Below, piece after piece: positions 31,296 through 54,279 of a stretch of 64,000 nt of DNA. Positions within the stretch are counted from its first letter, which is position 1. The number at the start of each line of letters is the position of its first letter. This stretch comes from Patescibacteria group bacterium (GTDB lineage: Bacteria; Patescibacteriota; UBA1384; XYA2-FULL-43-10; 1-14-0-10-43-13). The notes under the pieces are model-generated. The model worked only from the letters and a program-made list of their open reading frames with translations. It was not told the DNA's origin and ran no database searches. The translations under genes and the position numbers were made by a program. Location: positions 113,467 to 177,466 of the forward strand of contig JBAYVE010000002.1 of assembly GCA_041674765.1 (NCBI GenBank), given 5' to 3'.

Positions 31296-31445
31296 TGATT
31301 CCAAAAACCTTGCTATTACCCTGTTTATTATTGTTCGAGGAGGAACGACGAGAACTTTGGTCATTTGTTAGTATGGTGACAGACTTCTCATTTTTAAGAG
31401 CACCATTCGAAGAATAAATACATTTGATGGGTTTTAGGGAATTAC
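31296..31445 (-). mobile_element. MITE-like 150-bp repeat element, copy A (inverted relative to copies B and C)
   Basis: The reverse complement matches copy B (35687-35838) nearly base-for-base, including gttctcgtcgttcctcctcgaacaata. The ends are tgattccaaaaacc and gggttttagggaat. Confidence 0.6.
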
Positions 31446-31526
31446 TGCCAATGATTTAATTTCTAGATGACAAAATCTGAGTTTAAAAATTGAATAAAAA
31501 TTAAGAATTAAAAATTAATAATTTTA

Positions 31527-32126
31527 ATGTTGCCAACAAGTATCCAAAATCTAATCGATGAGTTCTCAAAACTTCCGGGAGTAGGGCCGAAAAGTGCGGC
31601 AAGACTGACCTTTTATCTGCTTACCAAGCCAAAAGGCGATATAGAGCAGCTTGGCAGTTCTGTTTTAAATTTGGCTCGGAATTTGAAATATTGTAAAGAG
31701 TGTTTTAATATTTGCGAAAACGATCTTTGTCAGATTTGTGCCGATGATCGTCGGAACCACCAGATTGTGATTGTTGTAGAAGAGCCTCTTGATGTTTTGG
31801 CGTTGGAAAAATCGGGCGGAATAGACGGAATTTACCATGTTCTTGGAGGCGTGATTTCTCCGATTAATGGCATCGGTCCGGATGATCTACGTATCAGTCA
31901 GCTCCTCGACCGGCTCGACGAAAGTGAAGATTTGGAAGTAATTTTGGCCACCAATCCAAACCTAGAAGGTGAAGCGACCGCAACTTATGTTAAAAACAAA
32001 ATTGCAGCATTGGGCAAAAATATCAAAATCACCAGAATCGCCCGGGGATTGCCTATCGGTGGTGATCTCGAATATGCCGATCAGGTCACTCTGAAACGAT
32101 CTCTCGAAGGAAGACGCGAATACTAG
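31527..32126 (+). CDS. recR: recombination protein RecR
   Basis: Has a helix-hairpin-helix (PGVGPKSAARL), a C4 zinc finger (CKEC…CQIC) and a Toprim domain. Confidence 0.9.
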   Translation: MLPTSIQNLIDEFSKLPGVGPKSAARLTFYLLTKPKGDIEQLGSSVLNLARNLKYCKECFNICENDLCQICADDRRNHQIVIVVEEPLDVLALEKSGGIDGIYHVLGGVISPINGIGPDDLRISQLLDRLDESEDLEVILATNPNLEGEATATYVKNKIAALGKNIKITRIARGLPIGGDLEYADQVTLKRSLEGRREY

Positions 32127-32357
32127 ATCCACCTTCGGTGGAATTTTTAAGTCCTAATTTCTAATTTTTAATCAAATTATAATTAAAAAATTAAAAATTC
32201 AATAAAAATTAAGAACTAAAAATTAAGAAATTATTTCGCATCAGACAAGCAAAAGCAATGCGCTAAATAGTTGGGGATAAGTTTACTTGACATTACCGAA
32301 AAATCACCGCTAAAATCGTTTAGTTAGCTTAAAATTAAAAACAAAAAAAGAGGTCAA

Positions 32358-32591
32358 ATGAGGGTCGAAGATAAATACTGTTGCCCCAATCCGGATTGTG
32401 CTTATATCGATTACAATGATGGCGAATGTCCTGAGTGCGGGAAAAAATTAGACAAAATAAAGGGTGATGAGTATCTTGCCTCCAATGATAATTTCGAGGA
32501 TGATAAAATTCAGCCGTTGGTATCGGATTTTGACGATGACCCTGATATGTGGTACGTAGATGGGGCTGACGAACAACTTGGCGCTATGTAA
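32358..32591 (+). CDS. small zinc-ribbon protein with acidic C-terminus
   Basis: AGAGG RBS. Contains CCPNPDC…CPEC. Confidence 0.5.
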   Translation: MRVEDKYCCPNPDCAYIDYNDGECPECGKKLDKIKGDEYLASNDNFEDDKIQPLVSDFDDDPDMWYVDGADEQLGAM

Positions 32592-32724
32592 TTGATAAAG
32601 TCCAACAAGATATAAAATTGAAAATTTAATAAAGTCTAACAAATAAAATAAATCGCTTCATCTACCTGAGGCGATTTTATTTTAGAATCATTTGTGCTAG
32701 GATTAGGGTAAAATTAAGGAGAAA

Positions 32725-34074
32725 ATGAAATTTTTTAACACTTTGAGTTCGAAAATCGAAGAATTTAAACCGATGAATCCGAGCGAGGTTACGATGTACA
32801 CTTGCGGACCTACAGTCTATGATTCGGTCCATATTGGCAATCTGCGTGCCTACGTTTTTGTTGACCTTCTAAAAAGAGCCCTGATTGCCGAAGGCTACGG
32901 AGTGAAACACGTAATGAATATCACCGATGTTGATGATAAGACCATAAGGAAATCGGATGGCAAAAGGGATAAGATTAAATCTTTGACGAAGAAATATGAG
33001 GATAAATTTTGGCAAGATTTCGATGAATCGAACAATATCCGACCCGATGTTGTAACGCGGGCGACTGAGTATGTGGAGAAAATGATTGTTTTCATCGAGG
33101 AATTGATTAAAAAAGGTTTTGCCTACAAAGCTACTGACGGCTCGGTATATTTTTCGATTGCTAAATTCACGGATTACGGTAAATTGGCAAAGTTGGATTT
33201 GTCAGAGCTAAAATCTGGTGCCAGAGTGGCCCAGGATGATTATACAAAAGAGAATCCTGCCGACTTTGTCCTTTGGAAAGCCTGGGACGAAAAAGACGGC
33301 GAAATCTTCTGGGATTCTTCTTTGGGTAAGGGCCGTCCTGGCTGGCATGTCGAATGCTCTGTTATGTCTACTGATGTCCTAGGGCCAACTATCGATATCC
33401 ATGCCGGTGGCATTGACCTTGTTTTTCCCCATCATGAAAATGAGATTGCACAATCAGAAGCCAAATCAGGTCAGAAGTTTGTCAACTTTTGGGTGCATAA
33501 TGAGCATCTACTGGTTAGCGGACAGAAGATGTCCAAGAGTTTGTCTAATTTTTACACGCTGGATGATATCAGGGAAAAAGGATTTTCAGCACTTGATTTC
33601 CGCTACTATGCTCTTGGCGCTCATTACCGTTCCAAGATGAACTACACTTGGGAAGGAATTGAGGGGGCTAAAAATGCGAGAGAGAGGCTGATGCGTTTGG
33701 TTGCGGGAATGAAAAGTCATAACGGCAAGGTTATTCAAAAGTATCTATCACAATTTAATGAAAAAATCTTTGATGATTTGAATGTTCCGGAGGCATTGGC
33801 GATTCTTTGGGAACTTGTTCGAGATGCTGAAATCCAACCTGAGAATAAACTTACGACAATTCTGGAGATGGACAAAGTTCTAGGATTGAACCTAGGTAAA
33901 AAACAGGAACCAGAAGTAATTCCGGCCGAGATCATTAAATTGGCGGATGAGCGTAAACAAGCTAGAAATGATAAAAAATTTGGCAGATCAGATGAGATAC
34001 GGGAAGAAATGCTAGAAAAGGGTTGGAGAGTAGAGGACTTGGCTAATAATAATTATAAGATAGTTAAAGCATAA
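32725..34074 (+). CDS. cysS: cysteinyl-tRNA synthetase
   Basis: AAGGAG RBS. Carries the CGPTVYDSVHIGN (HIGH) and KMSKSLSN motifs. Confidence 0.9.
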   Translation: MKFFNTLSSKIEEFKPMNPSEVTMYTCGPTVYDSVHIGNLRAYVFVDLLKRALIAEGYGVKHVMNITDVDDKTIRKSDGKRDKIKSLTKKYEDKFWQDFDESNNIRPDVVTRATEYVEKMIVFIEELIKKGFAYKATDGSVYFSIAKFTDYGKLAKLDLSELKSGARVAQDDYTKENPADFVLWKAWDEKDGEIFWDSSLGKGRPGWHVECSVMSTDVLGPTIDIHAGGIDLVFPHHENEIAQSEAKSGQKFVNFWVHNEHLLVSGQKMSKSLSNFYTLDDIREKGFSALDFRYYALGAHYRSKMNYTWEGIEGAKNARERLMRLVAGMKSHNGKVIQKYLSQFNEKIFDDLNVPEALAILWELVRDAEIQPENKLTTILEMDKVLGLNLGKKQEPEVIPAEIIKLADERKQARNDKKFGRSDEIREEMLEKGWRVEDLANNNYKIVKA

Positions 34075-34176
34075 AGCTTAAAGCGAAAAGCATAAAGCCT
34101 AAAGCCGAAAGCGAAAAGCTTAAAGCATAAAGCAGAAAGCATAAAGCATAAAGCAGAAAGCATAAAGCATAAAGCG
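34064..34176. repeat. heptamer/nonamer tandem array (NNAAAGC)n, left arm of an inverted repeat flanking the four-helix-bundle gene
   Basis: ttaaagcataaagcttaaagcgaaaagcataaagcctaaagccgaaagc…cataaagcataaagcg. The array starts inside the cysS 3' end. A partner array with reversed polarity lies at 34541-34569 (ggctttcggctttgagctttttgcttta). Confidence 0.6.
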
Positions 34177-34182
34177 ATTGTG

Positions 34183-34536
34183 ATGAATACGATAAAAAAA
34201 TTTGAGGATCTCATTGTTTGGCAAAAATCCAGGTTATTGGTAACTGACTGTTATTTCACTTTTGAGTTTATCAAGGATTTTTCATTTAAAGATCAATTAT
34301 GCAGGGCTGCCGTTTCTATTATGAACAATATTGCTGAGGGTTATGAAAGAAAAGGAGACAAGGAATTCGGACGGTTTCTTTATATCGCAAAAGGCTCTTC
34401 AGGTGAATTTAGATCCATGCTTTATGCGGCTTCAGATCTAAAGTATATTACAAAAGACCAATTTTTAAATTTTTGTGGCCGATCCGAAGAGATCTCTCGG
34501 CTTTTAGTTGGTTTAATAAAAAGAATGAATACTTAA
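34183..34536 (+). CDS. four-helix-bundle protein (23S rRNA intervening-sequence-type protein family)
   Basis: About 117 aa. The IKKFEDLIVWQKSRLL…IAEGYER…GSSGEF pattern is typical of this family. Confidence 0.75.
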   Translation: MNTIKKFEDLIVWQKSRLLVTDCYFTFEFIKDFSFKDQLCRAAVSIMNNIAEGYERKGDKEFGRFLYIAKGSSGEFRSMLYAASDLKYITKDQFLNFCGRSEEISRLLVGLIKRMNT

Positions 34537-34576
34537 TGGAGGCTTTCGGCTTTGAGCTTTTTGCTTTAAACTTATT

Positions 34577-35626
34577 ATGAATTTTTGGAAAGATGTTGAT
34601 AGACCAATCAAAGTTCTCTCACCGATGGCCGGATATACCGACTCGGCTTTTCGTGTTCTGTGCCGCGAATTTGGCGCTGATGTGGTGATCACGGAGCTGA
34701 TTTCTGCAGATGCTATAGCCTACGGCAAATTTGAAATCCAAAATTTGAAATCCGAAACAAATTCTAATTCTAAAATTCAAAAACTAAATCAAACAATAGT
34801 TACAGGAAAAAATACTTCTACGGCGGAGATGTTATCTTTTTGCGAAGAAGAACGGCCTTTGGTGGTCCAATTATTTGGAAAATATCCAGCAAAATTTGGC
34901 ATAGCGGCTAAATGGGTTACTGAAAATTTAAAGCCAGATGGGATCGATATCAATATGGGTTGTCCCGCTAGAAAAGTGGTCAATTCTGATCATGGCGCAG
35001 CATTGCTAAAAAATCCTGATTTAGCTATCGAAATTGTAAAAGCAGTGAAGGAAAATACCGATTTGCCGGTCTCTGTCAAAACAAGACTTGGCTGGGACAA
35101 TGACGACCAAATTCTAGAGTTCGCGCCGAAACTCGCCAGCGCGGGGATTGACGCTTTGATTGTTCATGGGCGAACCTATAAAGATGGGTTCAAAGGGAAG
35201 GCTAGGTGGGAAAATATTTATAAGGTGAAAGCGTTGCTTCCGAATTTAACTGTAGTTGGCAACGGAGACATAGATTCAATTTTCAGTGTCATGCCCGTGA
35301 AGGCGGACCAGGAAAATAATGAATTGGATCCCCGGGTCAGGCCCGAGGATGACACTATTGGGCTGGACGGCTATGCCATCGGCCGAGCAACTTTTGGCAA
35401 GCCATGGATATTTTCGAAAGCTGAAGTTTCGAAAGACGAGTTGAAGGTGATAATTTTGCGGCATGCTAAACTTGTCTATCGAACAAAGGGTGATTATGGC
35501 ATGGTTGAATTTAGAAAACATCTCCTGGCTTATCTAAAAGATTTTCCAGGGGCTAAAGAGCTGAGGAAGAAAGCAGTTGCGATTAAAACACTTGATGAGG
35601 TTAAAGGAATTCTGGAATTGGTTTAA
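34577..35626 (+). CDS. dus: tRNA-dihydrouridine synthase with an in-frame repeat-derived insertion
   Basis: Flavin-binding TIM-barrel motifs are present (LSPMAGYTDSAFR…VQLFG…DINMGCPARKV…KTRLGWD). The segment YGKFEIQNLKSETNSNSKIQ is encoded by a copy of the AAATTYGAAATCC repeat. Confidence 0.85.
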   Translation: MNFWKDVDRPIKVLSPMAGYTDSAFRVLCREFGADVVITELISADAIAYGKFEIQNLKSETNSNSKIQKLNQTIVTGKNTSTAEMLSFCEEERPLVVQLFGKYPAKFGIAAKWVTENLKPDGIDINMGCPARKVVNSDHGAALLKNPDLAIEIVKAVKENTDLPVSVKTRLGWDNDDQILEFAPKLASAGIDALIVHGRTYKDGFKGKARWENIYKVKALLPNLTVVGNGDIDSIFSVMPVKADQENNELDPRVRPEDDTIGLDGYAIGRATFGKPWIFSKAEVSKDELKVIILRHAKLVYRTKGDYGMVEFRKHLLAYLKDFPGAKELRKKAVAIKTLDEVKGILELV

Positions 35627-35686
35627 GGTCTATCGTTCGAACAAGGTGAGAACTAATCTATTTTTACGTGAGAACAAAACAAAACC

Positions 35687-35838
35687 GTCATTCCCTAAAA
35701 CCCTATTAAATGTATTTATTCTTCGAATGGTGCTCTTAAAAATGAGAAGTCTGTCACTGTATTAATAAATGACCATAGTTCTCGTCGTTCCTCCTCGAAC
35801 AATAAGAAACAGGGAAATAGCAAGGTTTTTGGAATCAC
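35687..35838 (+). mobile_element. MITE-like 150-bp repeat element, copy B
   Basis: Begins immediately after the dus stop. The termini are cgtcattccctaaaacc and ggtttttggaatca. It shares an internal core with copies A and C. Confidence 0.6.
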
Positions 35839-35850
35839 AGAACGAAACTA

Positions 35851-35879
35851 TTGACAAGATAATAATCTTATGGTAATAT
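35851..35879 (+). promoter_or_regulatory. candidate promoter abutting MITE copy B (TTGACA-N17-TAATAT)
   Basis: ttgaca at 35851-35856 and taatat at 35874-35879. It would drive the structured leader and the GC-rich gene pair at 36352-38450. Confidence 0.4.
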
Positions 35880-36351
35880 AACAAAGTAAGTTAACGCTTA
35901 GGCGTTTAATTCACAAAGCGAGGGCTGGGACGCAAATTTTTTTTTATTTGCATTCCATTCTCGTTTTTTGTTTCTTCAAATCCGACTGGGACCTTGGGAC
36001 ATTAGGGCACTAGGTTTTCCGGCTGACTAGCAGAGAGGCCCCTTAAAAAATGCGGGTCTTGCCAAGTCAGCTTCTAGCGTTTCTCACCTTCTTCCTGGTT
36101 GGATTCGAGGAAACAATTTGTGAAAATTTTACAAATAGGTAGTCGAATGCTTGTACAATTGAACAAATTTGCTAAAAAAATAGAGCGTTGTAGAGATTAA
36201 AATAGTGTTTAAATATTCTGATTGCCAGAGTTAAGCTTTAACTTTGGCAAGCGGAATTTTCCGCTAATCGACTCAACCATGACGTGCCAATCCCATGGTG
36301 GGGTGGCACATTTTCATTTTGAGGACCTTTTAGGACAAGGAGGCGCACAAG

Positions 36352-37614
36352 ATGCGTAAACTGCTGGCCGTATTAACGGTAGTTCTTCTGCTGACCATTG
36401 CGGTCAGCACCGGCGCTTATGCCGAAGGATTTCTTTTGCTTCCACTGACGTTTACCCACAGCGAGAAGGAGGCTAAGGCAGCGATTTTTGTCGAGGCCAA
36501 CAAGTATGACCCCAGTGGAAAACCACAGGGTTGGACTGACGCGGAGAAAAAAATGCTCAGTCCCGTCTTCGGGAGCACGCTGGAACTCCGATTTACCGCA
36601 GCTCTAAAAACAGTGACAGAGAATAAGAGCCATAAGGTAAAACGGCCCGTTTCCACGGAGTGGTACAGCCCAAGATCAACTACATCGGGCGTGCCTTATG
36701 ATTATTCGGATAATGCGAAGGCACGTGCCGAAAATGAGGCACTGAGATTAAGGCCTTCGGATCCGACTGACGCGTGTTCGCCAGTAAAGCTCATGTTGTA
36801 TCCGGCGCAAGTGTTGAATAGGAACACTTATACACCGGGTATCAATAACAAGTCGATGTGGTTACGAGTGGTCAACGGATTGTACATCGTAGACCAGCTC
36901 AAGATGATCTTCAAGATTACCCAGGTATCGGGAAATGATATCTGGGTGCAGGTCGTCTGTCAGTTCGTTGCCACTTGCGACGAGATCTATCCTGTCGACA
37001 CCGGCAATGCCGGAAAGAAAACGGCGACACAGGATGTGATCGATGATATCTTCTGCCGGCTGGATGAGCTTGATGAGATAGACACTGATCATGCCGATCA
37101 GATCACCGCTGTAAAAAACGATATCTGCACGCTAGCGGCTCAGATCGGCATCATCACTGATGACATTGCCGAACTGAAGCGCAAGCTGAACGAGTATGCG
37201 GCGGAGGCTAACAAGCCAAGACCGCCAATCGTTGTCTACGGAGGTCACCAGGGTCAACCTGGTCCTATCACGCACCAGACTCGCAGAGTCAGGTTTACCA
37301 TCGCGTTCGTTGATTATATCAGCGCGAAGATGCCGGTCGACAGTAAAGGTCGGTATGTGGCCGGTTCTCTCGAGGAACTGCGCCGTTATGGCTGCCGTCT
37401 GACGGCAACGACGATGGAGTGTATCAGCGGGAACGAGTGGATCGGAGACGGGCTTGCCCGTTATCATGATACGCCCATTGAGGAAGGAGTTCAGATGTTC
37501 AGCATCCTTGCGGCGAAGGACGATTGGCGCGAGAAGACGATATTCGTGGACTTCGGCCTGGAAAATCGATATCTTGTTGTCCCTGTGAAGGGGCGAGAGT
37601 ATGAGGTGAGATGA
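36352..37614 (+). CDS. secreted hypothetical protein (GC-rich island gene 1)
   Basis: AAGGAGG RBS. The signal peptide is MRKLLAVLTVVLLLTIAVSTGAYA. Composition is clearly GC-richer than the flanks. Confidence 0.55.
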   Translation: MRKLLAVLTVVLLLTIAVSTGAYAEGFLLLPLTFTHSEKEAKAAIFVEANKYDPSGKPQGWTDAEKKMLSPVFGSTLELRFTAALKTVTENKSHKVKRPVSTEWYSPRSTTSGVPYDYSDNAKARAENEALRLRPSDPTDACSPVKLMLYPAQVLNRNTYTPGINNKSMWLRVVNGLYIVDQLKMIFKITQVSGNDIWVQVVCQFVATCDEIYPVDTGNAGKKTATQDVIDDIFCRLDELDEIDTDHADQITAVKNDICTLAAQIGIITDDIAELKRKLNEYAAEANKPRPPIVVYGGHQGQPGPITHQTRRVRFTIAFVDYISAKMPVDSKGRYVAGSLEELRRYGCRLTATTMECISGNEWIGDGLARYHDTPIEEGVQMFSILAAKDDWREKTIFVDFGLENRYLVVPVKGREYEVR

Positions 37615-38450: not shown

Positions 38451-38671
38451 GGAGTGTTTGCCGGATATATCCTCCCCCGACCGCCACGTGTAACGTGGGG
38501 CGGGGGTCTCTCTAGAGCGATCAACAGATCAATATTAAGGCATGAATATCAAGCTTTAAGTCGAAATGTTTATCCCTCTAGTAGCGATTAAAAAGAATTG
38601 CTATTGAATTATTTGAACAAGTAGGTATTAATTAATTAGCTTTATGCTAAAAGTTATCAAGAAAGGTAAAA

Positions 38672-39883: not shown

Positions 39884-39891
39884 CAAATAAA

Positions 39892-39920
39892 ATCATCCCG
39901 CCGGCGGCGGGATGATTTTA
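39892..39920 (+). terminator. Rho-independent terminator
   Basis: ATCATCCCGCCGGCGGCGGGATGATTTTA is a perfect 12-bp palindromic stem with a T-tract. Confidence 0.75.
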
Positions 39921-39949
39921 TTAAAGCTCTGTGATAAACTATTTGGTAT

Positions 39950-40975: not shown

Positions 40976-41039
40976 GCAGTATCGGCCAGAGGCCGACCGG
41001 CCTTTAATCATAGCAATAAGTAATTGCATCGGAGGGGAT

Positions 41040-41858: not shown

Positions 41859-42164
41859 ATGGTTGATTTGGGAAAGATGAAGGATCTCTACGCATTACAG
41901 AAAAAGGCTAGACAGATCCAAAAAGAATTAAAAAACGTCGAAGTTGAAGCATCTAGTAACGATGGCTGGGTTACTGTAGTTTTCAATGGAGAACAGCATC
42001 TTACTGAAATTAATTTGGCAGAAGAAGCGCTCCGACCTGAAAACAAGAGAGAACTCGAAAAAGATCTGAAAAATTCAATCTCCCAGGCTATTTCAAGGGC
42101 TCAAGCAGTCGCAGCTGAAAAGATGAAAGATATTGCAGGGGGAATGGGAATACCGGGACTTTAA
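41859..42164 (+). CDS. ybaB: nucleoid-associated protein YbaB/EbfC
   Basis: 101 aa with the typical YbaB pattern (DLGKMKDLYALQKKARQIQKEL…GGMGIPGL). The last codons lie inside the 69-bp repeat. Confidence 0.85.
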   Translation: MVDLGKMKDLYALQKKARQIQKELKNVEVEASSNDGWVTVVFNGEQHLTEINLAEEALRPENKRELEKDLKNSISQAISRAQAVAAEKMKDIAGGMGIPGL

Positions 42165-42316
42165 GACCCAGCTACCCTAAAGTCCCCATACGAATTACGA
42201 ATGTACGAATCTTACGAATGCTGAAGGAAACTATTTGTTGGATTTAGTACCGGGACTTTAAGACCCAGCTACCCTAAAGTCCCCATACGAATTACGAATG
42301 TACGAATCTTACGAAT
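42151..42316. repeat. two identical 69-bp direct repeats (42151-42219 and 42248-42316), each a 9-bp-stem hairpin plus (TACGAAT)x4
   Basis: taccGGGACTTTAagacccagctacccTAAAGTCCCcatacgaattacgaatgtacgaatcttacgaat is present twice, separated by 28 bp. Confidence 0.8.
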
Positions 42317-42332
42317 ATAATTTTCCTAAAAT

Positions 42333-42430
42333 GTCATCCTCGGGCAGGCAACGCCATGACCCGGGGATCCAATTCCTTATACTGGATTCCAGCCCGCCAG
42401 CTGGCGGATCAAGCTCCAGTCTGGAATGAC
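42333..42430. repeat. GTCATCC-type palindromic repeat element (copy 1)
   Basis: gtcatcctcgggcaggcaacgccatgacccggggatccaattcc…cgccagctggcg…tggaatgac. The termini gtcatcc and ggaatgac are inverted repeats. There is an internal 12-bp perfect palindrome. Confidence 0.6.
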
Positions 42431-43110: not shown

Positions 43111-43524
43111 CCCTATGGACTATCATTTTTAGGATGAAAAAGGGCTATTCTAAATAGTGTCATCCTCGGGACCAATGGTGTTCTTGGAAATGGTGTCCGG
43201 GGATCCAATACCATATTATTGTTCGAACAAAGTGAGAAGTGATTCTTAGAACGTCATCCTGAACCGACGCAGTCGTCCCGAGCAGAGTCGAGGGATCTGT
43301 ATCTTGTTTCAGGATCTAATTCTTTTATTTGAGGACAAAGGGGCTCTTTCCGACCTGCCCGCAGATGCTAAAGCATCAGCTTTTGCAGGCGGGGGTCGCC
43401 CCTCTATCCTCAAACTCCAACTCCCTACACGGTATAGAGGAATTCTTTTTCTTCATAAAAAATCACTGGCTACGCCGTGGTCCTATGGGCTATCATTTTT
43501 TATGACGCAAAAGGACTATTGTAG
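43111..43524. repeat. ~45-bp direct repeats (43111-43157 and 43482-43524) bracketing two GTCATCC-type elements (43159-43212 and 43253-43316)
   Basis: ccctatggactatcatttttaggatgaaaaagggctattctaaatag is matched by cctatgggctatcattttttatgacgcaaaaggactattgtag. Between them lie gtgtcatcctcggga…tccggggatccaata and gtcatcctgaaccgacgcagtcgtcccgagcag. Confidence 0.5.
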
Positions 43525-44423: not shown

Positions 44424-44566
44424 CATGACATAGATAGCAAATAAATTGATAGAGGATTGAGATAAAGTATAGAATAGGGCTGCCAAAAGGCGGCTCTATT
44501 TTATACTTTACGAACTTTACAGACTTTAAGAACTTTATAAACTTTACGAACTTCTTAAACTGTCTG

Positions 44567-44596: not shown

Positions 44597-44621
44597 GTAG
44601 ACAAGTTAATTCGCGAGGGGA

Positions 44622-47600
44622 ATGAACCCGGACCAGTTTAAAAATCTTGATCGATTAGATCAGGAACTTGCACGAATTCAAAGAAGTACGAAGACATCGT
44701 GGCGGTTTTTTGCTGCACCACATGACTGGCTCCGAATGAAATTTCGCTGGTACTATAAGTGGCACCTAAACCCTTGGGCTCAAATGGTGCACAAATTCAG
44801 TTTTGGTCTTGTTACTGCAGGGATTTTGCTTATTGTGCTGACTCAATTCGGTCTGTTTGACTTTAATCAATCCACAAAAGCAGCAGCTGTTTCTGTTGAT
44901 ACCTCTACGACTGGGGAAGCGACCAATAATAGCTCTCAAAGAAAAACCTTTACCGATACTGTTAATAATACTCAATGGGCTTTTTATAATAATGGAGAAG
45001 CGATAGAATATTCGTACTCTTCTGATGGAAGTTCGTGGGTAAGCGCTGGAACATTGGCGCATAATACTCAATATTTTAGTACTAATTACAAAGCCATATC
45101 CGGCGCTGGTTACGTTCTCTTGGCTACGGAATGCAATACTTATGATGTTTGTATTTACCAAGGTTCATTGACTGGAACTAGCATTTCCTTTGGCAGTGCG
45201 GCAACTGTTTTTGACGGCGTATCTTTATCAAATAATTATTCTAGACCCACAGTTACTTATGATGGCGACAACTATATTTGGGTTGGAGCGGTAAAGGATT
45301 TCGGTAATTCTTCTCCCGATCACCTTCAAGCTCAGACTAAAAAATCATCTTCTGCTAACAATATCTCCGGCTGGGGATCAGTTCTGACAGCAGGTAATAA
45401 GATGAAAATACTCACCAATGTAATTATCCTCAATCAGTCCGGTTCAAGTATGTATCTTGTTGCCTCAAATGGTTCTAGTGTTACCGGATTTAAATATACA
45501 ACCGAAGTTCCGGTGTGGACGAGTGCCAATGATGGTGGGGAGGCTGCCTGGTTTGAGTTTGGGGATGGGGGATTCAGTGCGGCGGTTAATGCGGTAGCTA
45601 TATCCGGAACTGATGTTTATGTCGGTGGCAGTTTTATCAAAATTGATTCGTTGACAACGAACTTCATTGCTAAATGGAATGGCTCTTCGTGGTCTACTCT
45701 CGGAAGTGGTGTCGGCGGCCCAGTTTATGCCCTAGAGGTTGTTGGGACGGATCTTTATGTCGGCGGAAGTTTCAATAGCGCCGGAGCGGTTGCTGTCAAC
45801 AATCTTGCCAAATTTAATACACTTACTTCTGAATGGTCAAGTGTTGGTGGCGGCGTAGTTGGTGTGGAAGAAAATAGTGCCATTGTATATTCTTTAATCG
45901 AATCAAATTCCAGCCTCTATATCGGAGGAAGCTTTGTTTTAGCAGGTGAAACGAGCGCAAAATCAATTGCTAAATGGGATATTGCGGCTGAGTCATGGAG
46001 CGCTCTAGGGAATGGCCTTATTGATATGAATGATAGCACCGCAATTGTACGCAGTATTGCGATTGATGGTTCAAGTGTTTATGCAGGTGGGATGTTCGTT
46101 CAGGCTGGCGAGGTAGCCGCCAATGTAGTGGCGGTCTGGGATGGTAATTCATGGTCCAGTATGGGGTCTCCTCAAATGGATATGGCGATGACGGTCGCAA
46201 TTTATAATTCGGAAGTGTATATCGGTGGTCTGGGCTGGAGTGAGGGCAATGCAGCAAAATGGAATGGTTCTGCGTGGGAATATATTAATTTTACGAGCGA
46301 AGTCAGAACCCTTGTAGTCAATGATGGCAAATTGTATGCGGGTGGAGGTTTTCAGGCTCTTGGCGAGGATTCTTTTAAGTTTATCGCTGTTTATAATGGA
46401 GTTTCTTGGAGTGGGCTCGAGCAAGATCTAAACAATACTGTGTCTCAGCTAACTTTTTCAGGTAACGATTTATATACCGTGGGATCCTATACGGCTGCAG
46501 GCACTGTTGCAGCGAAGTATTTTGCAAAATATAGTGATGGACAATGGCAGGCCCAAGGGAGTGTTGGGGGGATAGACGGTGATGTAAATACAATCGCAGT
46601 TGATGACAGTAACAATATTTATATTGGGGGCACTTTCAGAACAGCTGGCGGTATTTCTGCTAACAGAATTGCGAAATATGACGGAGATACCTGGAGCGCT
46701 CTTGGGACAGGGACTTCTGGCGAAGTTAAGGTAATAAAAGTGGTTGATGATATTGTTTACGTAGGCGGATCCTTTGCAAGTGCGGGAGGGGAAGCTACCT
46801 CAAACATCGCGTCATGGAATCCTGCAACTAGTACATGGAGTGCTTTGGGCAGCGGCACCGATAGCACGGTTTATACACTTGCTGATTTTGGGAGTTCTCT
46901 ATACGCAGGAGGTAATTTCTCTACGGCTGGAGGAGGAGCTGCTAGCAAAGTGGCAACATGGAATATGACTGCAGGAACTTGGAGTGCTCTTGGTAGTGGC
47001 GTTAACGACTTAGTTCTTTCAGTCGCCACCGATCCAGAAGGGAATTTATATGTTGGCGGAAGCTTTACTTCGCCTGGCTCGAAAATTGCTAAGTGGAATG
47101 GCTTGGAGTGGTCGGCATTAGGAACTGGCGTCAATAATTTGGTTCGATCATTGATATTTGTTGATAGTAAACTATATGTGAGTGGACATTTTACAACGGC
47201 TGGCGGCGTATCGTCAAACTTGGTGGCAATGTGGGATGGGGAAAACTGGAATAGTATGGGTCTGGCTGGGAGCGTTGTATACACGATCGCTGCTGACGCT
47301 TCAAATAATATTTATGCTAGTGTTCCGACTAATGGAAACCGCAGTGCTCAAGTAAAATGGAATGGCGAAGTTTGGGATAACTATAGTAACGGTTTTGCTG
47401 GTTCTGGAGTTTATTCGTCTTTATTTATTGGCGATAGATTGTACATCGGCGGTTCAACAACAGTTTTTTCTTCTTATGGAATGAGCGGAACTTCCCTCGG
47501 CTACCTTGAGAATGCTATCGCAAGGAGTACAGATTCAGGGTCAGAAGTGTCTGCAGTAACCGACTCTCTCGGTAATATTCATCTGGCATATTCTGCTTGG

Positions 47601-50600
47601 TATAATTCCGGACGAGCAATGTATAGTAAGCATTTTGATGCATCTACCAGCCGATGGGGGATTGATTACTCGATTGGAACCGAAGGATCACAACCTTCTC
47701 CGAGCATTGCGGTAAATCCTTCCAACAATGATATTTATGTGTTTTTGATTGCTAGCAACAACAGTGTTAAATACTACAAATGGGCCCTATCGACTGATCC
47801 AGAAGTACCTTCGTCTTGGGAACTTGTCGATAATATTTATAGCACAGGCACTAATACAGGTGTTTCTGTTAGTGAATATGTTTCAGGGTATAAGCTTGGA
47901 ATGATATGGACCAACGGCACTGGCTCTCCTTATACTGTTTATGCTGATTCCTTAAATTTTATTACATATGGTACTTTGAGTGGTACTGTTTACACGGATC
48001 GTACGGCAGCTACTCATGCTGGTGCCGGTGTGCAGGTCAGATTGGTAATCGATGGTACTTTAAACGAAGAAGTTGCTACTACCGATGAGAATGGCGCTTA
48101 CTCTTTTGTAACAGAGGTTGGGACGAACGATAACGTCCTAATATTTGCTGATCCTAGCGCCGGCAATATTTATGGAAATGTCGTGATGACTGCAAGCGGT
48201 GCAGATTTAACGGGCATCGATATTTACGGTAATGCTGTTATTGCTAGAAACGAAACGGCTTCGCAGGTTACAAATGAAACATTTCAAGCTGCTCACGGCT
48301 CTCTCACAGAGACAGGGATATTGTATTCCTCCGGGTTACCCATCGATTCGTCGGTGGATGGAACTTATTTTGACCTTTTGGTTTGGCCTGGCAAGAGTAT
48401 GACAGCTAGTGCGGACGTTCGTGTTGAAGATCTTGTGATAGGTACTGGTGCTACTCTAAGTGGAATGGCCTCTGCAGGTGAAAATGCATTTATGGTTTCC
48501 GGAGACTTTGTGAATAATGGTACTTTTGTTGCCAATCAGCAAAAGCTTATAGTTGAATGCTACGAAGGCTTTTGTAATGGCAGCAGTTCCCAAATTGTCA
48601 CTACTGGGGGAACCAATGCCACCTTTTACGATATTGATATTTCTAAACAGATTGGAGATTCTGTAATTATCGATGGAGACCTTAAAATTACACATGATCT
48701 CAATGTGATACACGGAACAATTGATTTGCTCACAAATACCCCTGATATAGATCTTTCTAATGATCTCTATATTTATACAAATGGTGATATGACAACAATG
48801 CCAGGAGATCTAACTTTTCTTGGGGACAGTGAATCCGAGCTGAGATTGATGAATTCTGATGTTTTTAGCCATATCATCATCGGCGGAGGAGAGGGCAAAA
48901 TTTTATCGTTGATCACATCATCCCTCTTGGCTGATACATTTACTATCAATGCCGGCAATATTTTCAAGCCGCCATACGAAGCGACGGCCACGATCAATGT
49001 GAATTGGGAAAATTATGGTACTCTTGATACTTCAAGCGGAAACTTGGCGTTGGTTTTAGAAGGTTCCGCGGAATCAAAAATATACGGCAACAATACTTTT
49101 TCTCAATTTTACTGCACAACCCCTGATAAAACGATTAAATTTGAAAGTGGTAAAACTCAAAATATTACCGGTGCTTTGAATATTACTGGTACCTCTGGGC
49201 ATAATGTTGTCTTGGCAATGCAGGGCGGGACTTCTGGTGTCGACTTTTGGAATATCGATCCCGATACCAGCTCTAGGACGGTTGATTACGTTAAAGTTAC
49301 TGATTCGACAAATTTAGACGAAGTTTATATCGATCCTCCAAATTACGATCCGGAGAGCAGCCATACTGTAAATTGGTTTCCAGCCGCTCCAACGGTAACA
49401 ACAGGAGCAAAGGATTCTTATCTAACGACGGATTTTTCATCCGACTGGATTGAGGCAAAGGGATCCATCACTGCTACTGGAGGTAAAAATCCGACTATTC
49501 GGGGTTTAAAATATAGCACTGTTGGCGAGCAGGACGATAGCTCTTCGTTTGACAGCGGTGATTACTCAACAGGCGATTTCACAAAAACTCTTTCCAATCT
49601 TGAAGTGAATACTCTCTATTATATCCGCGCCTATGCTACAAATACCGGCGGGACAGGTTACGGCAGCTGGATTTCAATGTATACCAAGGCCAATACTCCG
49701 GGCATTTCCGTTGCCGGGGATTATGACGAGGTCAGCGGCTATCATCTGGACGCTACTATTTCGCCGAATCTAAATTCCGATGGTACAGAATATTACTTGC
49801 AATATTCAACCGACGGAACCAATTTTTATGATCCAACGGGAATGGCTTGGGGGCAGACTGAAAAATCATACATTTTCACAACTGATAAAGACGGTGCTCA
49901 TATTCAACCATATACCCAATACTGGCTAAAGGTTAAAGCTCGAAACGGGGATAATATCGAGACCGACTATTCATCTTCATCAGCCGATGTTACGCCGCCA
50001 GCTGCACCAACAATAACAAATCCGGCAGTTTCAAATATCTGCAGCACTACAGCAACTGTGTCTTGGACAGCTTCCGTAAGTGGGGACAAATACGACCTAT
50101 CTTATGGTACTGATGCTAGCGCCAGCAATACCGCAGTTATCAATAATATCGCAACAACTAGTTATGAGTTGACGAATTTAGTAGAAGGTGACAAGTATTA
50201 TTTCAAAGTAAGGGCAGTTTCGAATGCAAATGGAACGGGTGCTTATTCATCAATTTCTGATCCTTTTACTCCAACAGCATGTGTGGCTCCTATTGCGCCA
50301 AATGATTTTTCGGGGACCCCTGCTTCAGCCTCAAGTATTGATTGGTCCTGGACTGATAGCTCGACGATCGAAACGGGCTACAAAGTGCATAATTTGACGC
50401 ATAGTTCTTTGTCCGGCGATCTTCCTGCAGATTCTATTGCCTGGAGCGAACAAAGTTTGGAAGTCAATACTGCGTATACTCGCCACGTTAATATTTTTAA
50501 CGAGATAGGCAATAATGATTCAAATTCGGCCACGGTTTACACAAAAGCAAATACTCCGGGCCAACCATCGGTTAACCAAATTGATTCAATTTCCTTAAAA

Positions 50601-53600
50601 GTTATTGTTTCTGAAGGGACAGATAATCCAAGCTATACCCATTATGAAATATATGAAACAACTACCGGTAAATATGTCAGGCAAAGTGATGGCACGCTGC
50701 AAGCAACTGAGGATTGGCAAACTTATTCCGGCTGGGGTGGAGCGAGTGGAATAACAATCAACGGATTAGACAGCAATACAAGCTACACCTTCCAAGTTCG
50801 AGCTGCTAACAAAGCTGCTATGGGTCTAGACAATGTTTTGACAGATTGGTCTGCTAGCACAACCAATTCGACTTATCCAAAATATTCTATAACTATCTCT
50901 ATAGACGGCACGGGAGAAGGCACTGTTTCTCCTTCCGCTGTTGATCCGGTCAATAGAGGAACAAGTGTTGACCTTACAGCCTCTCCATCGATTAACTCAA
51001 ATTTCACAACTTGGACCGGATGCACCTCTGTATCTGGCAATGTTTGCCATCTTTCCAATATTACTTCGGACAAATCTGTCACAGCTACTTTTGCGATCAA
51101 AACTTTCACCGTCCAGATATCCAAAGCAGGAAACGGAGCTTCCGTAAGTGATACTTCGCCAAATACAGAGCAGACAGTAAATTATGACGGAAGCATCGAC
51201 ATCACGGCTTTACCCCATATTTCAGCGAACTTTACCTCCTGGTCTGGATGCGATTCTGTCGAAGGTGCAGTCTGTCACCTCACAAATATCACATCCAACA
51301 AATCTGTCACAGCTACTTTTGCGATCAAAACTTTCACTGTTGCGGCAACATCCACCGGTTGTGGTTCGGTTTCAAACTCTTCGCAAGCAATAAATTACGG
51401 CTCGGATTCTGCTGTTATGACCTTCATTCCAAACTCAGGCTGCTATGTCTTCAATGTTGTCGCCGATGGCGATTCAGTCGGTTCGCCATCTTCCAAACAA
51501 TTTACAAATATCACACAAAATCATACCGTCGACGTGGAATTTCGTGAATATCCTACGGCAACGCTATCGATTAATTCCGGTAGCCTAAAAACCAATCAGG
51601 ATACAGTATCATTATCAATAACCCACAATACTACTGCCTTGGAAATGAAAATATCAAATAGCTCTGATTTAACGGGTGCAGAGTATACGCCGGTTCGATC
51701 ATCTATTAGCAATTGGATTTTGGCCGATTCATCTAACGACGGCGTTAAGACGGTCTATCTAAAGGTGAAAGACTCAGTTGGCCATGAGTCTGGAGTGGTT
51801 TCCGCCACCATATCACTCGATAAAACTCCGACTGATGCCCCGCTTAACTTAGTGGCTGTTGGCGGTAAAACCACTACTTCTCTCTCCTGGAAGAATCCTG
51901 TGGCCACCGACTTTACAAAAATGGCGGTTTTTCGTTCTACATCGCCGAATTTCATTCCGGATCTGGGTGCAAACAAGATCGGCGACACCAGAAATAACCT
52001 TGAGCATAGTTATATCGATACCAACGTAGCCAATGGTGTTCTTTACTATTATCGGATAAAAGCAGTTGATGATGCTGATAATTATTCAATATCCTCTAAT
52101 GAGGCATCAGCAAAAGCTGATAACGATCTACCTTCCGCACCAGGTCTGCCGACAATCACCGAAAAAACAAACTCAATTGATGATATAGAGTACACAAATA
52201 GGGGAAATAATACGATAACATGGCCAGCCTCTACAGATCTTAACTCTGGCTTGAAGCATTACTCAATTATGCTTACCATACCCCCGCTAGCTTCGAACAA
52301 TTGCGCTGAAACCACTACCGCTAATTCCCTAACATGTAATTTTTCAGATGGTATCTATAGTATCGCCGTTCAGGCACATGACAATACCGGTAATTCCAGT
52401 GCTTTCTCGCAAACATTATATTTTAATGTCGATACGTCAGCCCCGACGCTGACTGAACCACTTAGTATCTCCGATGCTCCTACCGATAGGTCAGCGCTCG
52501 ATTACAAAGCGCTTCTCTCGTGGAGCAAAGCTTCAGATGGCAATACGGGCGGTATCAGCAGCGGAATACTGGGCTATATCGTCTATCGGTATGAAGATCC
52601 GATCTTACTTCCAAATCAAATAGTAACGAAGGTCAGTACTGATTCCAGCGGAAATCCAAGCTATGTTGACGCAATTACCCCTGATAAAAACTATGATTAT
52701 TCGGTGCTTGCTGTAGACAAAGCAATGAACCGCTCGAGTAAAATCTCAAATAGTATAAATGTTGCCGGAATATTGCCAGGGGAGGGAGAACTGATAATCT
52801 CTGATATAACATCAACACCATCTGATCAGATGGGAGAGAAAACATTTGCTACTATTTCGTGGAAAACATCTGTTCCTTCTACCAGTATGGTCAGTTATGG
52901 TCTTGATACCGGTTATTCTCTGCAATCTCCACTTGACACCGGTCTAAATACGATCCATACAATGGTACTTAGCGATTTGGAGTTCAGCAAAACTTATCAC
53001 TTCAAAGTTTTCTCCGAGGCGGCAAATGGAGATCGTGCAAATTCTGATGATTACACTTTTACTACCAAGGATATCTTGAAGGATGATGATGTCTGGAGTG
53101 TTATACCAGGGGTGATTATTCGAATTGACGATGTTATTTCAAGAATAATCAATGAAATCAACGTTCGAGGGACTGCGCAGACTGTAGCCTTGCCTGTCGC
53201 TAGTTCGGCTGCTGTAGTTGCGGCATCTGGGGCAGCTGCTGCCGCTGCGCCGATTGCCAATGCGATGACCCTCTTTTCATTCCCAGAATATTTACGGGCA
53301 TTGTTATATTCAATATTATCAATCGGTTCAAGGCGTAAAAGGCGGGAATGGGGCAAGGTTGTCGAAGAGGGGACTGGCATCCCGATCGCACAAGCACGGC
53401 TAAGCCTGATTAGGTTGGAAAAGAATATTGCCGGTAACCCAATTGAAAAGATAGTTGCAACTACATATTCTGACAAGAAGGGCAATTATGCTTTCATCGC
53501 GGAGAAAGGTTCCTACCGTCTCTCAGTAGATAAAGATCTTTACAAAGTCTCGAATCTAAAGGACGTTTATCATCCCTCTGATGTTATAAAGGTAAAGGAA

Positions 53601-54116
53601 GACAAAGAAGGGCTGATTATTCCAAGTATCGTCCTTTCGATGGACAGCCATTCTGCAAAAAAGAAATTGTTGAGTTTAAATAGACTTAGTAAGTTTGAAA
53701 AAGTACTTTTCTATGTTTCCCTGGTCTTCCTGATTTTCGGCACTTATACATCGATACTAAATCTTCTAGCCAATCCCCGAAATCCGCTGAACTTTCTGAT
53801 TATTATTTATCCGATTCTCTGGGTTGTTACTCTGGCGAGTTTATTCAAAGTCTCCCCATGGGGCAATGTCGTTGATAAAACAAATTCTCAGGGTGTTTCA
53901 TTGGCTTTGGTTAGGATTATGGATAAAGGCGGAAAAGTGCTCGTAAAGACAGCAATTACCGACCAACAGGGCAAATACCAGACCACCGTGCCTAAAGGTG
54001 AGTACAAGATTCTGGTAGCCAAACAGGGCTACTTCCAAGCTGAGCCGGAGACCTTGAATGCGACAAATGAACTAAATGCTTTGAACAAACAGATTGAGGT
54101 CGTTCAAAGAAATTAG
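44622..54116 (+). CDS. giant (3164 aa) membrane-anchored surface protein with repeated beta-propeller-like, fibronectin-III/Ig-like and carboxypeptidase-regulatory-like domains
   Basis: An N-terminal TM is present. There are about 15 units of LYVGGSF…AGG…IAKWNG..WSALG (~50 aa). These are followed by fn3-like blocks (TPPAAPTITNP…VSWTAS) and a near-duplicated segment (CHLSNITSDKSVTATFAIKTFTV and CHLTNITSNKSVTATFAIKTFTV). The C-terminus has 3-4 TM segments flanked by CarbopepD_reg-like motifs (DKKGNYAF…GSYRLSV; DQQGKYQTTVPKGEYKILV). Confidence 0.8.
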   Translation: MNPDQFKNLDRLDQELARIQRSTKTSWRFFAAPHDWLRMKFRWYYKWHLNPWAQMVHKFSFGLVTAGILLIVLTQFGLFDFNQSTKAAAVSVDTSTTGEATNNSSQRKTFTDTVNNTQWAFYNNGEAIEYSYSSDGSSWVSAGTLAHNTQYFSTNYKAISGAGYVLLATECNTYDVCIYQGSLTGTSISFGSAATVFDGVSLSNNYSRPTVTYDGDNYIWVGAVKDFGNSSPDHLQAQTKKSSSANNISGWGSVLTAGNKMKILTNVIILNQSGSSMYLVASNGSSVTGFKYTTEVPVWTSANDGGEAAWFEFGDGGFSAAVNAVAISGTDVYVGGSFIKIDSLTTNFIAKWNGSSWSTLGSGVGGPVYALEVVGTDLYVGGSFNSAGAVAVNNLAKFNTLTSEWSSVGGGVVGVEENSAIVYSLIESNSSLYIGGSFVLAGETSAKSIAKWDIAAESWSALGNGLIDMNDSTAIVRSIAIDGSSVYAGGMFVQAGEVAANVVAVWDGNSWSSMGSPQMDMAMTVAIYNSEVYIGGLGWSEGNAAKWNGSAWEYINFTSEVRTLVVNDGKLYAGGGFQALGEDSFKFIAVYNGVSWSGLEQDLNNTVSQLTFSGNDLYTVGSYTAAGTVAAKYFAKYSDGQWQAQGSVGGIDGDVNTIAVDDSNNIYIGGTFRTAGGISANRIAKYDGDTWSALGTGTSGEVKVIKVVDDIVYVGGSFASAGGEATSNIASWNPATSTWSALGSGTDSTVYTLADFGSSLYAGGNFSTAGGGAASKVATWNMTAGTWSALGSGVNDLVLSVATDPEGNLYVGGSFTSPGSKIAKWNGLEWSALGTGVNNLVRSLIFVDSKLYVSGHFTTAGGVSSNLVAMWDGENWNSMGLAGSVVYTIAADASNNIYASVPTNGNRSAQVKWNGEVWDNYSNGFAGSGVYSSLFIGDRLYIGGSTTVFSSYGMSGTSLGYLENAIARSTDSGSEVSAVTDSLGNIHLAYSAWYNSGRAMYSKHFDASTSRWGIDYSIGTEGSQPSPSIAVNPSNNDIYVFLIASNNSVKYYKWALSTDPEVPSSWELVDNIYSTGTNTGVSVSEYVSGYKLGMIWTNGTGSPYTVYADSLNFITYGTLSGTVYTDRTAATHAGAGVQVRLVIDGTLNEEVATTDENGAYSFVTEVGTNDNVLIFADPSAGNIYGNVVMTASGADLTGIDIYGNAVIARNETASQVTNETFQAAHGSLTETGILYSSGLPIDSSVDGTYFDLLVWPGKSMTASADVRVEDLVIGTGATLSGMASAGENAFMVSGDFVNNGTFVANQQKLIVECYEGFCNGSSSQIVTTGGTNATFYDIDISKQIGDSVIIDGDLKITHDLNVIHGTIDLLTNTPDIDLSNDLYIYTNGDMTTMPGDLTFLGDSESELRLMNSDVFSHIIIGGGEGKILSLITSSLLADTFTINAGNIFKPPYEATATINVNWENYGTLDTSSGNLALVLEGSAESKIYGNNTFSQFYCTTPDKTIKFESGKTQNITGALNITGTSGHNVVLAMQGGTSGVDFWNIDPDTSSRTVDYVKVTDSTNLDEVYIDPPNYDPESSHTVNWFPAAPTVTTGAKDSYLTTDFSSDWIEAKGSITATGGKNPTIRGLKYSTVGEQDDSSSFDSGDYSTGDFTKTLSNLEVNTLYYIRAYATNTGGTGYGSWISMYTKANTPGISVAGDYDEVSGYHLDATISPNLNSDGTEYYLQYSTDGTNFYDPTGMAWGQTEKSYIFTTDKDGAHIQPYTQYWLKVKARNGDNIETDYSSSSADVTPPAAPTITNPAVSNICSTTATVSWTASVSGDKYDLSYGTDASASNTAVINNIATTSYELTNLVEGDKYYFKVRAVSNANGTGAYSSISDPFTPTACVAPIAPNDFSGTPASASSIDWSWTDSSTIETGYKVHNLTHSSLSGDLPADSIAWSEQSLEVNTAYTRHVNIFNEIGNNDSNSATVYTKANTPGQPSVNQIDSISLKVIVSEGTDNPSYTHYEIYETTTGKYVRQSDGTLQATEDWQTYSGWGGASGITINGLDSNTSYTFQVRAANKAAMGLDNVLTDWSASTTNSTYPKYSITISIDGTGEGTVSPSAVDPVNRGTSVDLTASPSINSNFTTWTGCTSVSGNVCHLSNITSDKSVTATFAIKTFTVQISKAGNGASVSDTSPNTEQTVNYDGSIDITALPHISANFTSWSGCDSVEGAVCHLTNITSNKSVTATFAIKTFTVAATSTGCGSVSNSSQAINYGSDSAVMTFIPNSGCYVFNVVADGDSVGSPSSKQFTNITQNHTVDVEFREYPTATLSINSGSLKTNQDTVSLSITHNTTALEMKISNSSDLTGAEYTPVRSSISNWILADSSNDGVKTVYLKVKDSVGHESGVVSATISLDKTPTDAPLNLVAVGGKTTTSLSWKNPVATDFTKMAVFRSTSPNFIPDLGANKIGDTRNNLEHSYIDTNVANGVLYYYRIKAVDDADNYSISSNEASAKADNDLPSAPGLPTITEKTNSIDDIEYTNRGNNTITWPASTDLNSGLKHYSIMLTIPPLASNNCAETTTANSLTCNFSDGIYSIAVQAHDNTGNSSAFSQTLYFNVDTSAPTLTEPLSISDAPTDRSALDYKALLSWSKASDGNTGGISSGILGYIVYRYEDPILLPNQIVTKVSTDSSGNPSYVDAITPDKNYDYSVLAVDKAMNRSSKISNSINVAGILPGEGELIISDITSTPSDQMGEKTFATISWKTSVPSTSMVSYGLDTGYSLQSPLDTGLNTIHTMVLSDLEFSKTYHFKVFSEAANGDRANSDDYTFTTKDILKDDDVWSVIPGVIIRIDDVISRIINEINVRGTAQTVALPVASSAAVVAASGAAAAAAPIANAMTLFSFPEYLRALLYSILSIGSRRKRREWGKVVEEGTGIPIAQARLSLIRLEKNIAGNPIEKIVATTYSDKKGNYAFIAEKGSYRLSVDKDLYKVSNLKDVYHPSDVIKVKEDKEGLIIPSIVLSMDSHSAKKKLLSLNRLSKFEKVLFYVSLVFLIFGTYTSILNLLANPRNPLNFLIIIYPILWVVTLASLFKVSPWGNVVDKTNSQGVSLALVRIMDKGGKVLVKTAITDQQGKYQTTVPKGEYKILVAKQGYFQAEPETLNATNELNALNKQIEVVQRN

Positions 54117-54129
54117 AGTCCTATGACCA

Positions 54130-54279
54130 TGATTCCGAAAACCCTAATAAACGTATTTATTCTTTAAATGGTGCTCTTAAAAATGAGAACTTCTGTCACT
54201 GTACTAATAAGTGACAGAAGTTCTCGTCGTTCCTCCTCGAACAATAAGAAACAGGGAAAGGGTAAGGTTTTCGGAATCA
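54130..54279 (+). mobile_element. MITE-like 150-bp repeat element, copy C (perfect 14-bp TIRs)
   Basis: Begins 14 bp after the giant-gene stop. The 5' TIR is tgattccgaaaacc and the 3' TIR is ggttttcggaatca. There is an internal perfect hairpin (CTTCTGTCACtgtactaataaGTGACAGAAG). Confidence 0.65.

Follow-up and report, generated by a model that had tools for sequence, protein, structure and literature searches.

Prokaryotic MITEs (miniature inverted-repeat transposable elements) range from 50 to 800 bp in size (PMC11602168), and several described families provide a background for the element considered here, a repeat of ~152 bp that occurs in three copies (A, B, and C) on a 64,000-nt stretch of contig JBAYVE010000002.1 from a Patescibacteria group bacterium of the Candidate Phyla Radiation (CPR). 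That whole stretch is referred to as the window, and coordinates are those of the window unless another locus is given. MITEAba12, from Acinetobacter and the Moraxellaceae, is a non-coding element of 113 bp with imperfect terminal inverted repeats (TIRs) of 16 bp and target-site duplications (TSDs) of 9 bp, sometimes 8 bp, that are recognizable in only ~40% of its copies (PMC6382973). These copies are dispersed and mostly intergenic, prefer AT-rich targets, possess their own outward-facing promoters, and have ISAba12 as their parent insertion sequence (IS) (PMC6382973). In Neisseria, the Correia (NEMIS) elements are classic MITEs that affect neighboring transcription; they measure ~155 bp, lie in intergenic regions near gene starts, form long hairpins once transcribed, and carry TIRs of 24-26 bp, TA termini with a TA duplication, internal promoters, and an IHF site (PMC2229807). 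Finally, RUP of S. pneumoniae and ERIC/IRU of the enterobacteria are non-coding, TIR-bearing intergenic repeats of 107-127 bp for which the same review reports no fixed relation to -35 hexamers, and the orientation of ERIC relative to flanking genes matters (PMC2229807).

Architecturally, MITEAba12 is closest to the CPR element, in that both have imperfect TIRs, TSDs of 8 bp (mostly 9 bp in MITEAba12), and a dispersed distribution, although the two show no sequence similarity. Unlike MITEAba12, the CPR element has no internal promoter and instead keeps a fixed spacing to resident promoters. It is clearly not of the Correia type, having GT..AC termini, an 8-bp TSD, and promoters outside the element, and it differs from RUP and ERIC/IRU, whose targets are of the TA type and whose TIRs are short (7-9 bp). 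The 8-bp TSD and the GT..AC termini set the CPR element apart from Correia, RUP, and ERIC, the bacterial MITEs of the TA type. Two other kinds of short repeat, the IS200/IS605-derived PATE and the REP/RAYT repeats, lack TIRs and a TSD, carry subterminal hairpins, and insert 3' of a short, fixed motif; membership in either group is ruled out by the TIRs, the 8-bp TSDs, and the absence of a shared TSD motif.

The CPR repeat represents a real MITE family that had not been described before, and its size, TIRs, TSD, non-coding nature, many genomic contexts, and empty orthologous sites together agree with the published definition of such elements (PMC11602168). The reading that best accommodates the evidence, to which a probability of roughly 0.88 is assigned, is that of a MITE family with an 8-bp TSD whose insertion or survival is biased toward the DNA just upstream of a resident -35 hexamer. 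The three copies in the window are as follows.

31295..31445, minus strand: MITE copy A, 151 bp, with the topA end (31201) and the recR start (31527) on either side; nhmmer E=3e-49
35687..35838, plus strand: MITE copy B, 152 bp, 59 nt beyond the dus stop codon (35626); nhmmer E=1e-52
54129..54280, plus strand: MITE copy C, 152 bp, 11 nt past the stop codon (54116) of a gene encoding 3164 aa; nhmmer E=9e-47

All three were located within 1-2 nt of where an initial annotation, made from the sequence alone, had placed them; the element ends proposed there were nearly right, with similarity running 1-2 nt further out (..CGTGATTCC / GGAATCACG..). The same annotation had all three copies directly following stop codons, which is true of C but not of B, at 59 nt past dus, or of A, at 92 nt past topA. 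In the latter case, the topA stop at 31201 is the one indicated by the orthologue, and the TAA at 31287-31289 closes a spurious, overlapping open reading frame (ORF) of 68 aa. The copies are mutually 83-92% identical (A vs. B, 92%) with sharp boundaries, and a MAFFT alignment of A, B, and C plus flanks had a mean column identity of 86% and an abrupt end of similarity on both sides. Two shared cores, of 28 and 23 nt, had also been described, and each was found exactly three times with no mismatch, where shuffled sequences lead one to expect none.

The family extends well beyond the window. Twelve additional copies were found, for a total of 15 at full length, and the alignment spans the entire 152 bp as opposed to a short common motif, so that the “MITE-like” designation originally given to the three copies is strongly supported by copy number, alignment length, and 8-bp TSDs alike. 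One of the twelve, copy D, resides on the same 222-kb contig at 7398-7552 of locus L026, 2.2 kb to the left of the window start, and no copy was present in the next 7 kb to the right of the window; the contig thereby has four copies within 81 kb. The other eleven (designated below by their locus numbers) are spread over six contigs of one metagenome, Ga0172380, and were recovered by a 20-mer scan of the JGI metagenomes that returned 14 loci, the remaining three being chance matches. Pairwise identity among the 15 copies is 79-94% (median, 88.5%), and copies from the window and from Ga0172380 are intermixed by similarity rather than forming two groups; for example, B is 94% identical to L004 and L013. 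The genes flanking the element are unrelated from copy to copy, indicating dispersal into different contexts, and copies occur in both orientations relative to them. In a separate run, SRR6484325, the short-read contigs break in or beside A, C, and D, as expected of a multi-copy repeat. Three other short repeat families are common to the window and the Ga0172380 loci, which points to an origin of these contigs in the same population or a sister one. Outside this setting, a 21-mer core was absent from 185,579 GTDB species representatives and from viral contigs, there were no viral, plasmid, or phage matches, and a literature search found no description of a MITE for the CPR/Patescibacteria.

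Element boundaries, ORF indels, and TSDs were assessed on a set of 14 copies. The common sequence, ..CGTGATTCC to GGAATCACG.., is ~152 bp long, and similarity stops sharply at both of its ends; across all 15 copies, the span between the GT..AC termini is 146-152 bp. The TIRs are imperfect and 14-17 bp long, following the pattern 5'-CGTGATTCC[C/G][T]AAAACC.. / ..GGTTTT[C/T/A]GGAATCACG-3'. They are perfect over 16 bp in L013 (GTGATTCCCTAAAACC / GGTTTTAGGGAATCAC) and over 14 bp in C, at 54130-54143 and 54266-54279, as the initial annotation had it, and in the other copies are made imperfect by a 1-nt indel or one to two mismatches. Perfect 8-bp TSDs were seen in four copies, GTTTCTAT (L008), TGGAGTAC(C) (L006), GACAGTAA (L003), and GCAAATCA (L013), with matches of 7/8 in B, L010, and L011 and of 6/8 in A, L004, and L009. 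Those of window copies A and B are positioned as follows.

35678..35685, plus strand: TSD of B, left, AACAAAAC; 7/8 match to the right copy
35841..35848, plus strand: TSD of B, right, AACGAAAC; 2 nt before the -35 hexamer
31286..31293, plus strand: TSD of A, right-end side, CTAATGAC; 6/8 match to 31448-31455
31448..31455, plus strand: TSD of A, left-end side, CCAATGAT

The best 8-mer matches between a copy's own flanks (8, 8, 8, 8, 7, 7, 7, 6, 6, 6, 5, 4, 4, and 4; mean, 6.29) clearly exceed those between mismatched flank pairs (n=182; mean, 3.98; maximum, 7), and in 20000 permutations of the flank pairings neither the own-flank mean nor the count of matches of at least 7/8 was ever attained (p<5e-5). 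The TSDs share no target motif, nor was a compositional target preference seen. With regard to coding capacity, the sole ORF is one of 40-42 aa on the reverse strand (MIPKTLLFPCFLLFEEERRELW..), and a small protein gene is ruled out at this location by frame-breaking indels of 1 or 2 nt in five of the 14 copies.

Copy C possesses a further peculiarity, in that the combination of perfect TIRs with a perfect internal hairpin (15 bp, 54185-54225), both of which had been noted previously and were recovered at the same places, is confined to this copy. Its hairpin departs from the family consensus at four to five positions, and every one of these departures raises complementarity. Judging from this pattern of changes, the perfect hairpin and TIRs of C look like the product of a template-switch “quasipalindrome correction” and not like the ancestral state.

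Independent evidence of insertion comes from relatives that lack the element at syntenic loci, namely L017 and L024 of Ga0376277 (an 868-kb contig) and L022 of GCA_964406145.1. Protein identity between these relatives and the window is 68% and 60% for CysS and 66% and 79% for L10. At the site occupied by B, a single ACGAAC-TA-TTGACA stands in L022 in place of the window's pair of TSDs. These same loci also serve to establish the origin of two promoter-like sequences, given below, that the initial annotation had placed just outside B and C and that a consensus scan recovered, both with a TG-extended -10 hexamer.

35851..35879, plus strand: sigma-70-type promoter, TTGACA-17-TAATAT, TG-extended; 12 nt off the right end of B and not in the element
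54293..54321, plus strand: rplJ promoter, TTGACA-17-TAAATT, TG-extended; 12 nt off the right end of C and followed by a conserved L10 leader

The suggestion that the element itself supplies these promoters did not hold. The TSD lies between the end of the element and the -35 hexamer, and the promoter is therefore outside the mobile unit; furthermore, a promoter scan found no internal or hybrid promoter in the element. An orthologue of the B-side promoter stands directly after dus both in L017 (stop codon, 5 nt, TTGACA-17-TAAAGT) and in L022 (..ACGAACTA-TTGACA-17-TAGAAT), followed in each by a conserved non-coding region, while the C-side promoter and its L10 leader are orthologous to the sequence after the rplA terminator in L024 and L022. 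Because orthologous promoters are present in relatives free of the element, the element must have landed beside pre-existing promoters, and those next to B and C are resident, not cargo. A companion suggestion, that the element provides a terminator, fared no better, since no terminator-like site was found within any copy; the one candidate, a reverse-strand hairpin with a T5 run, is weak, and its T-run is broken in L003, L006, L008, and L009.

When all copies are anchored at their ends, a recurrent geometry emerges, consisting of a -35-like hexamer, a spacer of 16-18 nt, and a -10 hexamer that is often TG-extended. In 11 of the 15 copies, the -35-like hexamer lies 7-13 nt (mostly 11-13) from the right end, a count that includes weaker hexamers and the single case at 7 nt. 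The individual distances from right end to -35 are as follows.

11 nt: D, L008, and L011
12 nt: B, C, L003, L006, L009, and L012
13 nt: L004
7 nt: L005

L010 has such a promoter 11 nt off its left end instead, and A, L002, and L013 have none at that spacing. Since the spacing is constant, the right TSD copy ends 1-4 nt before the -35 hexamer. By contrast with this constancy, the upstream gene may be as near as 1 nt or as far as 265 nt. By a strict consensus rule, the -35 hexamer begins 11-13 nt off the right end in seven of the 15 copies (p~1e-13 at a genome-wide rate of 0.0013 per position), and by our own estimate the probability of chance is still ~1e-6 when every element is granted one outward promoter within 100 nt. 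L004 and L005 are situated between back-to-back, divergent promoters; among the copies with a promoter at one end only, nine face it with the right end and one with the left (p=0.02). The genes served include rplJ, rpsL, rpmH-rnpA, a tRNA-Phe/Cys/Gly cluster, spoVS, and others. For comparison, at neither end of ten other short repeats in the window did a promoter-like site occur within 30 nt.

With these observations in hand, it is tempting to sketch how the copies arose. The features described so far, promoter adjacency included, are shown by the data, whereas how the transposase works and why the copies lie next to promoters are what we infer. The copies would have been inserted by a cut-and-paste or copy-in reaction of the DDE type that leaves an 8-bp TSD, presumably through mobilization in trans by a transposase, although none was found. 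Insertion, or the survival of inserted copies, is strongly biased toward a single target, namely the 8 bp that precede by 1-4 nt the -35 hexamer of an already existing, sigma-70-type promoter, with the right end usually toward the promoter.

Two further readings of the repeat may be weighed against transposition. The first regards it as a multi-copy structured non-coding or cis-regulatory RNA, such as a 3'-UTR stabilizer, a terminator, or a small RNA (sRNA) gene, and it gains some appeal from the location of the elements in transcribed intergenic regions and from the fold of C, which is very stable on both strands relative to shuffled sequences (z = -9.0 and, on the other strand, -7.8). A and B, on the other hand, fold no better than shuffled sequences (z of only -0.9 to -1.7), and RNAalifold on 14 copies yielded zero compensatory pairs, a covariation term of +0.3, and a consensus fold from which the central hairpin is missing. 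There was no Rfam match at gathering scores in the window and 11 loci, and a relaxed search produced generic hairpins, the best at 25.5 bits against a threshold of 100. The element also has no promoter or terminator-like site of its own and lies in either orientation relative to flanking genes. Given that the TSDs show the copies to have arrived by insertion, an RNA of this kind is very improbable. Hardly more probable is the recombination switch that the initial annotation envisioned, in which A and B would invert the intervening recR / zinc-ribbon / cysS / dus block. The pair is indeed inverted, with 93% complementarity over 141 nt and 4262 nt between the arms according to a repeat finder (~4.2 kb had been proposed), and the 50-nt identical run that A and B have in common makes homologous exchange conceivable and an inversion physically possible. 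The block is nevertheless in its ancestral orientation, with the same gene order and direction in the element-free L017 and in an independent assembly, L015, and an inversion would place essential genes on the strand opposite all of their neighbors. Moreover, B is as close to copies on other contigs as it is to A, and thus there is no sign of ongoing exchange between the two.

The cause of the promoter adjacency is a more delicate matter, on which three explanations compete, none of them reaching even odds, with mixtures of them making up the remainder. One tentative possibility is that the element or its transposase is actively directed to the 8 bp before a -35 hexamer in a preferred orientation, perhaps by reading TTGACA itself or the bent upstream DNA bound by RNA polymerase and sigma, and in a variant of this idea the element would be a mobile upstream promoter module co-opted by a reduced CPR genome. 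Such targeting would explain both the distance and the orientation. Tn7, through TnsD at attTn7, and the yeast element Ty3, at Pol III start sites, insert with a constant, short spacing and a constant orientation relative to a recognized DNA-protein landmark; if targeting is at work, the 11-13-nt spacing and the 9:1 orientation of the CPR element would be their counterpart. Tn7 and Ty3, however, use dedicated targeting proteins and have one or a few target classes, whereas here selection could partly explain the pattern. To be held with the same reserve is passive tolerance alone, whereby insertion would be random and surviving copies would gather in the sole neutral DNA of a very compact CPR genome, the few bases between a stop codon or terminator and the next -35 hexamer. 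In keeping with this, C lies 11 nt from a stop codon, a stop codon abuts L011, a terminator hairpin abuts the TSD at L006, and in the relative L024 the T-tract of the terminator touches the -35 hexamer. Yet B, D, L003, L008, L009, and L012 had 50-265 nt of upstream spacer available, mostly with no abutting hairpin, other repeats persist between co-transcribed genes and even in frame within dus, and the orientation bias is not predicted. Rather more doubtful, though still worthy of consideration, is domestication, in which a former MITE is kept because it acts at about -47 in one orientation, possibly as a platform for a regulator or nucleoid protein, an UP-like element, or an insulator against read-through, thereby joining rplJ, rpsL, rpmH, a tRNA operon, and spoVS in one regulatory set. 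The -35 distance, fixed at 11-13 nt while the upstream-gene distance is not, the bias of nine to one in orientation, and the lack of promoters beside other repeats of the genome are all compatible with such a role, as is the fact that two internal blocks of the element are better conserved (0.94-0.96) than the TIRs and hairpin region (0.76-0.82). The latter, however, is in part an ascertainment effect, as a core 20-mer was used to find 11 of the copies. Domestication is further weakened by the three relatives whose orthologous promoters do without the element, by the absence of a promoter at that spacing from A, L002, and L013, and by the failure to identify a binding motif or factor.

Returning to the preferred reading, a MITE family with a bias toward sites immediately preceding resident -35 hexamers, several observations weigh against it. 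The empty sites come solely from relatives that are 60-80% identical in protein, and filled/empty polymorphism was not found at the strain level, where look-ups of identical proteins led back solely to this organism, in assemblies that either carry the element or have a contig break at it. The Ga0172380 copies, for their part, may come from a sister population and not from the genome of the window. Greater conservation of internal blocks than of TIRs is the opposite of what simple MITE decay would leave. Finally, no parent IS or other autonomous partner was found: ~190 kb of host DNA (the window plus the fetched loci) contained no further TIR, and a scan for the TIR pattern in 185,579 species genomes returned 92 single, unrelated chance matches and five loose TIR pairs, none of which was credible.

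A number of other repeats and rearrangements were observed in the window. In dus (34577-35626) there are two in-frame insertions relative to the L017 and L022 orthologues, at 34727-34798 and 35312-35359. One of the two is a copy of an AT-rich repeat that also occurs at 25103-25142 (90% identical), and the other is a copy of a palindromic “GTCATCCTCGGG..CCCGGGGATCCAAT” repeat, translated as ..NELDPRVRPEDD... The situation resembles that of the Rickettsia palindromic elements, which likewise enter genes in frame. At least one more family of short, GC-rich palindromic repeats, of the TGTCATYCTCGGG.. and ..GGGAATGACA types, occurs at the positions below as well as in L002, L004, L010, and L011.

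42332-42380: GC-rich palindromic repeat
43158-43217: GC-rich palindromic repeat
55100-55150: GC-rich palindromic repeat
55790-55845: GC-rich palindromic repeat
56210-56270: GC-rich palindromic repeat
59916-59940: GC-rich palindromic repeat

These repeats are 84-100% identical between the window and the Ga0172380 contigs and are located between co-transcribed genes (rplJ-rplL) and apparently within tgt; none is adjacent to a promoter. Tandem arrays of heptamers are also present, (TAAAGCN)n after cysS at 34050-34196 and (GGAATGN)n at 117-185 and 57184-57284. Across the recR-to-dus block, the window and L015, an ENA assembly, differ solely by a 21-bp change in repeat length, equivalent to exactly three units of the array at 34.1 kb, which is therefore length-polymorphic. 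An exact direct duplication of 69 bp (42151-42219 / 42248-42316; 97 bp apart) with (TACGAAT)-like repeats inside follows ybaB. In addition, the motif TGTTTCCAAGGTnTTGAAA is common to the left flanks of L012 (~7315-7335) and L013 (~100-120), where it stands outside the element by 14-21 nt and out of register with it; it may mark the terminus of a further repeat or a favored neighboring feature.

Differences in gene content surround the copies as well. The 3164-aa gene preceding C (44622-54116), which has fn3, Rax2, and Flg_new_2 matches, separates rplA from rplJ. In both syntenic relatives these two genes are neighbors, with just a 150-aa ORF or nothing in between, and the giant gene is therefore a lineage-specific insertion in the ribosomal protein cluster. 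In L017 (8204-8815), an HD-domain gene fits without a spacer between topA and recR, where the window has a 326-bp gap (31202-31526) that includes copy A; the HD gene has thus been lost in the window lineage or gained in L017. Beyond copy B, between the promoter at 35851 and the gene at 36352, is a non-coding stretch (~35975-36130), conserved in three genomes and containing CGACTGGGAnnTnGGGACATTAG and CTTCTTCCTGGTTGG, with a hairpin and a T-run ahead of it. It had no Rfam match even at E<0.1 and is a candidate for a non-coding RNA or leader of a new type.

Genomes of the CPR/Patescibacteria are usually viewed as streamlined and repeat-poor, and the host genome nonetheless holds at least three short repeat families in addition to the MITE. 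As MITEs are common, one more family is by itself of modest interest. Its geometry is another matter, and if targeting is true, the element would offer a naturally occurring tool for promoter-directed transposition in bacteria and a testable model of that process, a bacterial counterpart to the promoter-targeted integration of eukaryotic elements, and an independent map of active promoters for an uncultured lineage. If selection is responsible instead, the same geometry would serve as a gauge of how scarce neutral DNA is in a CPR genome.

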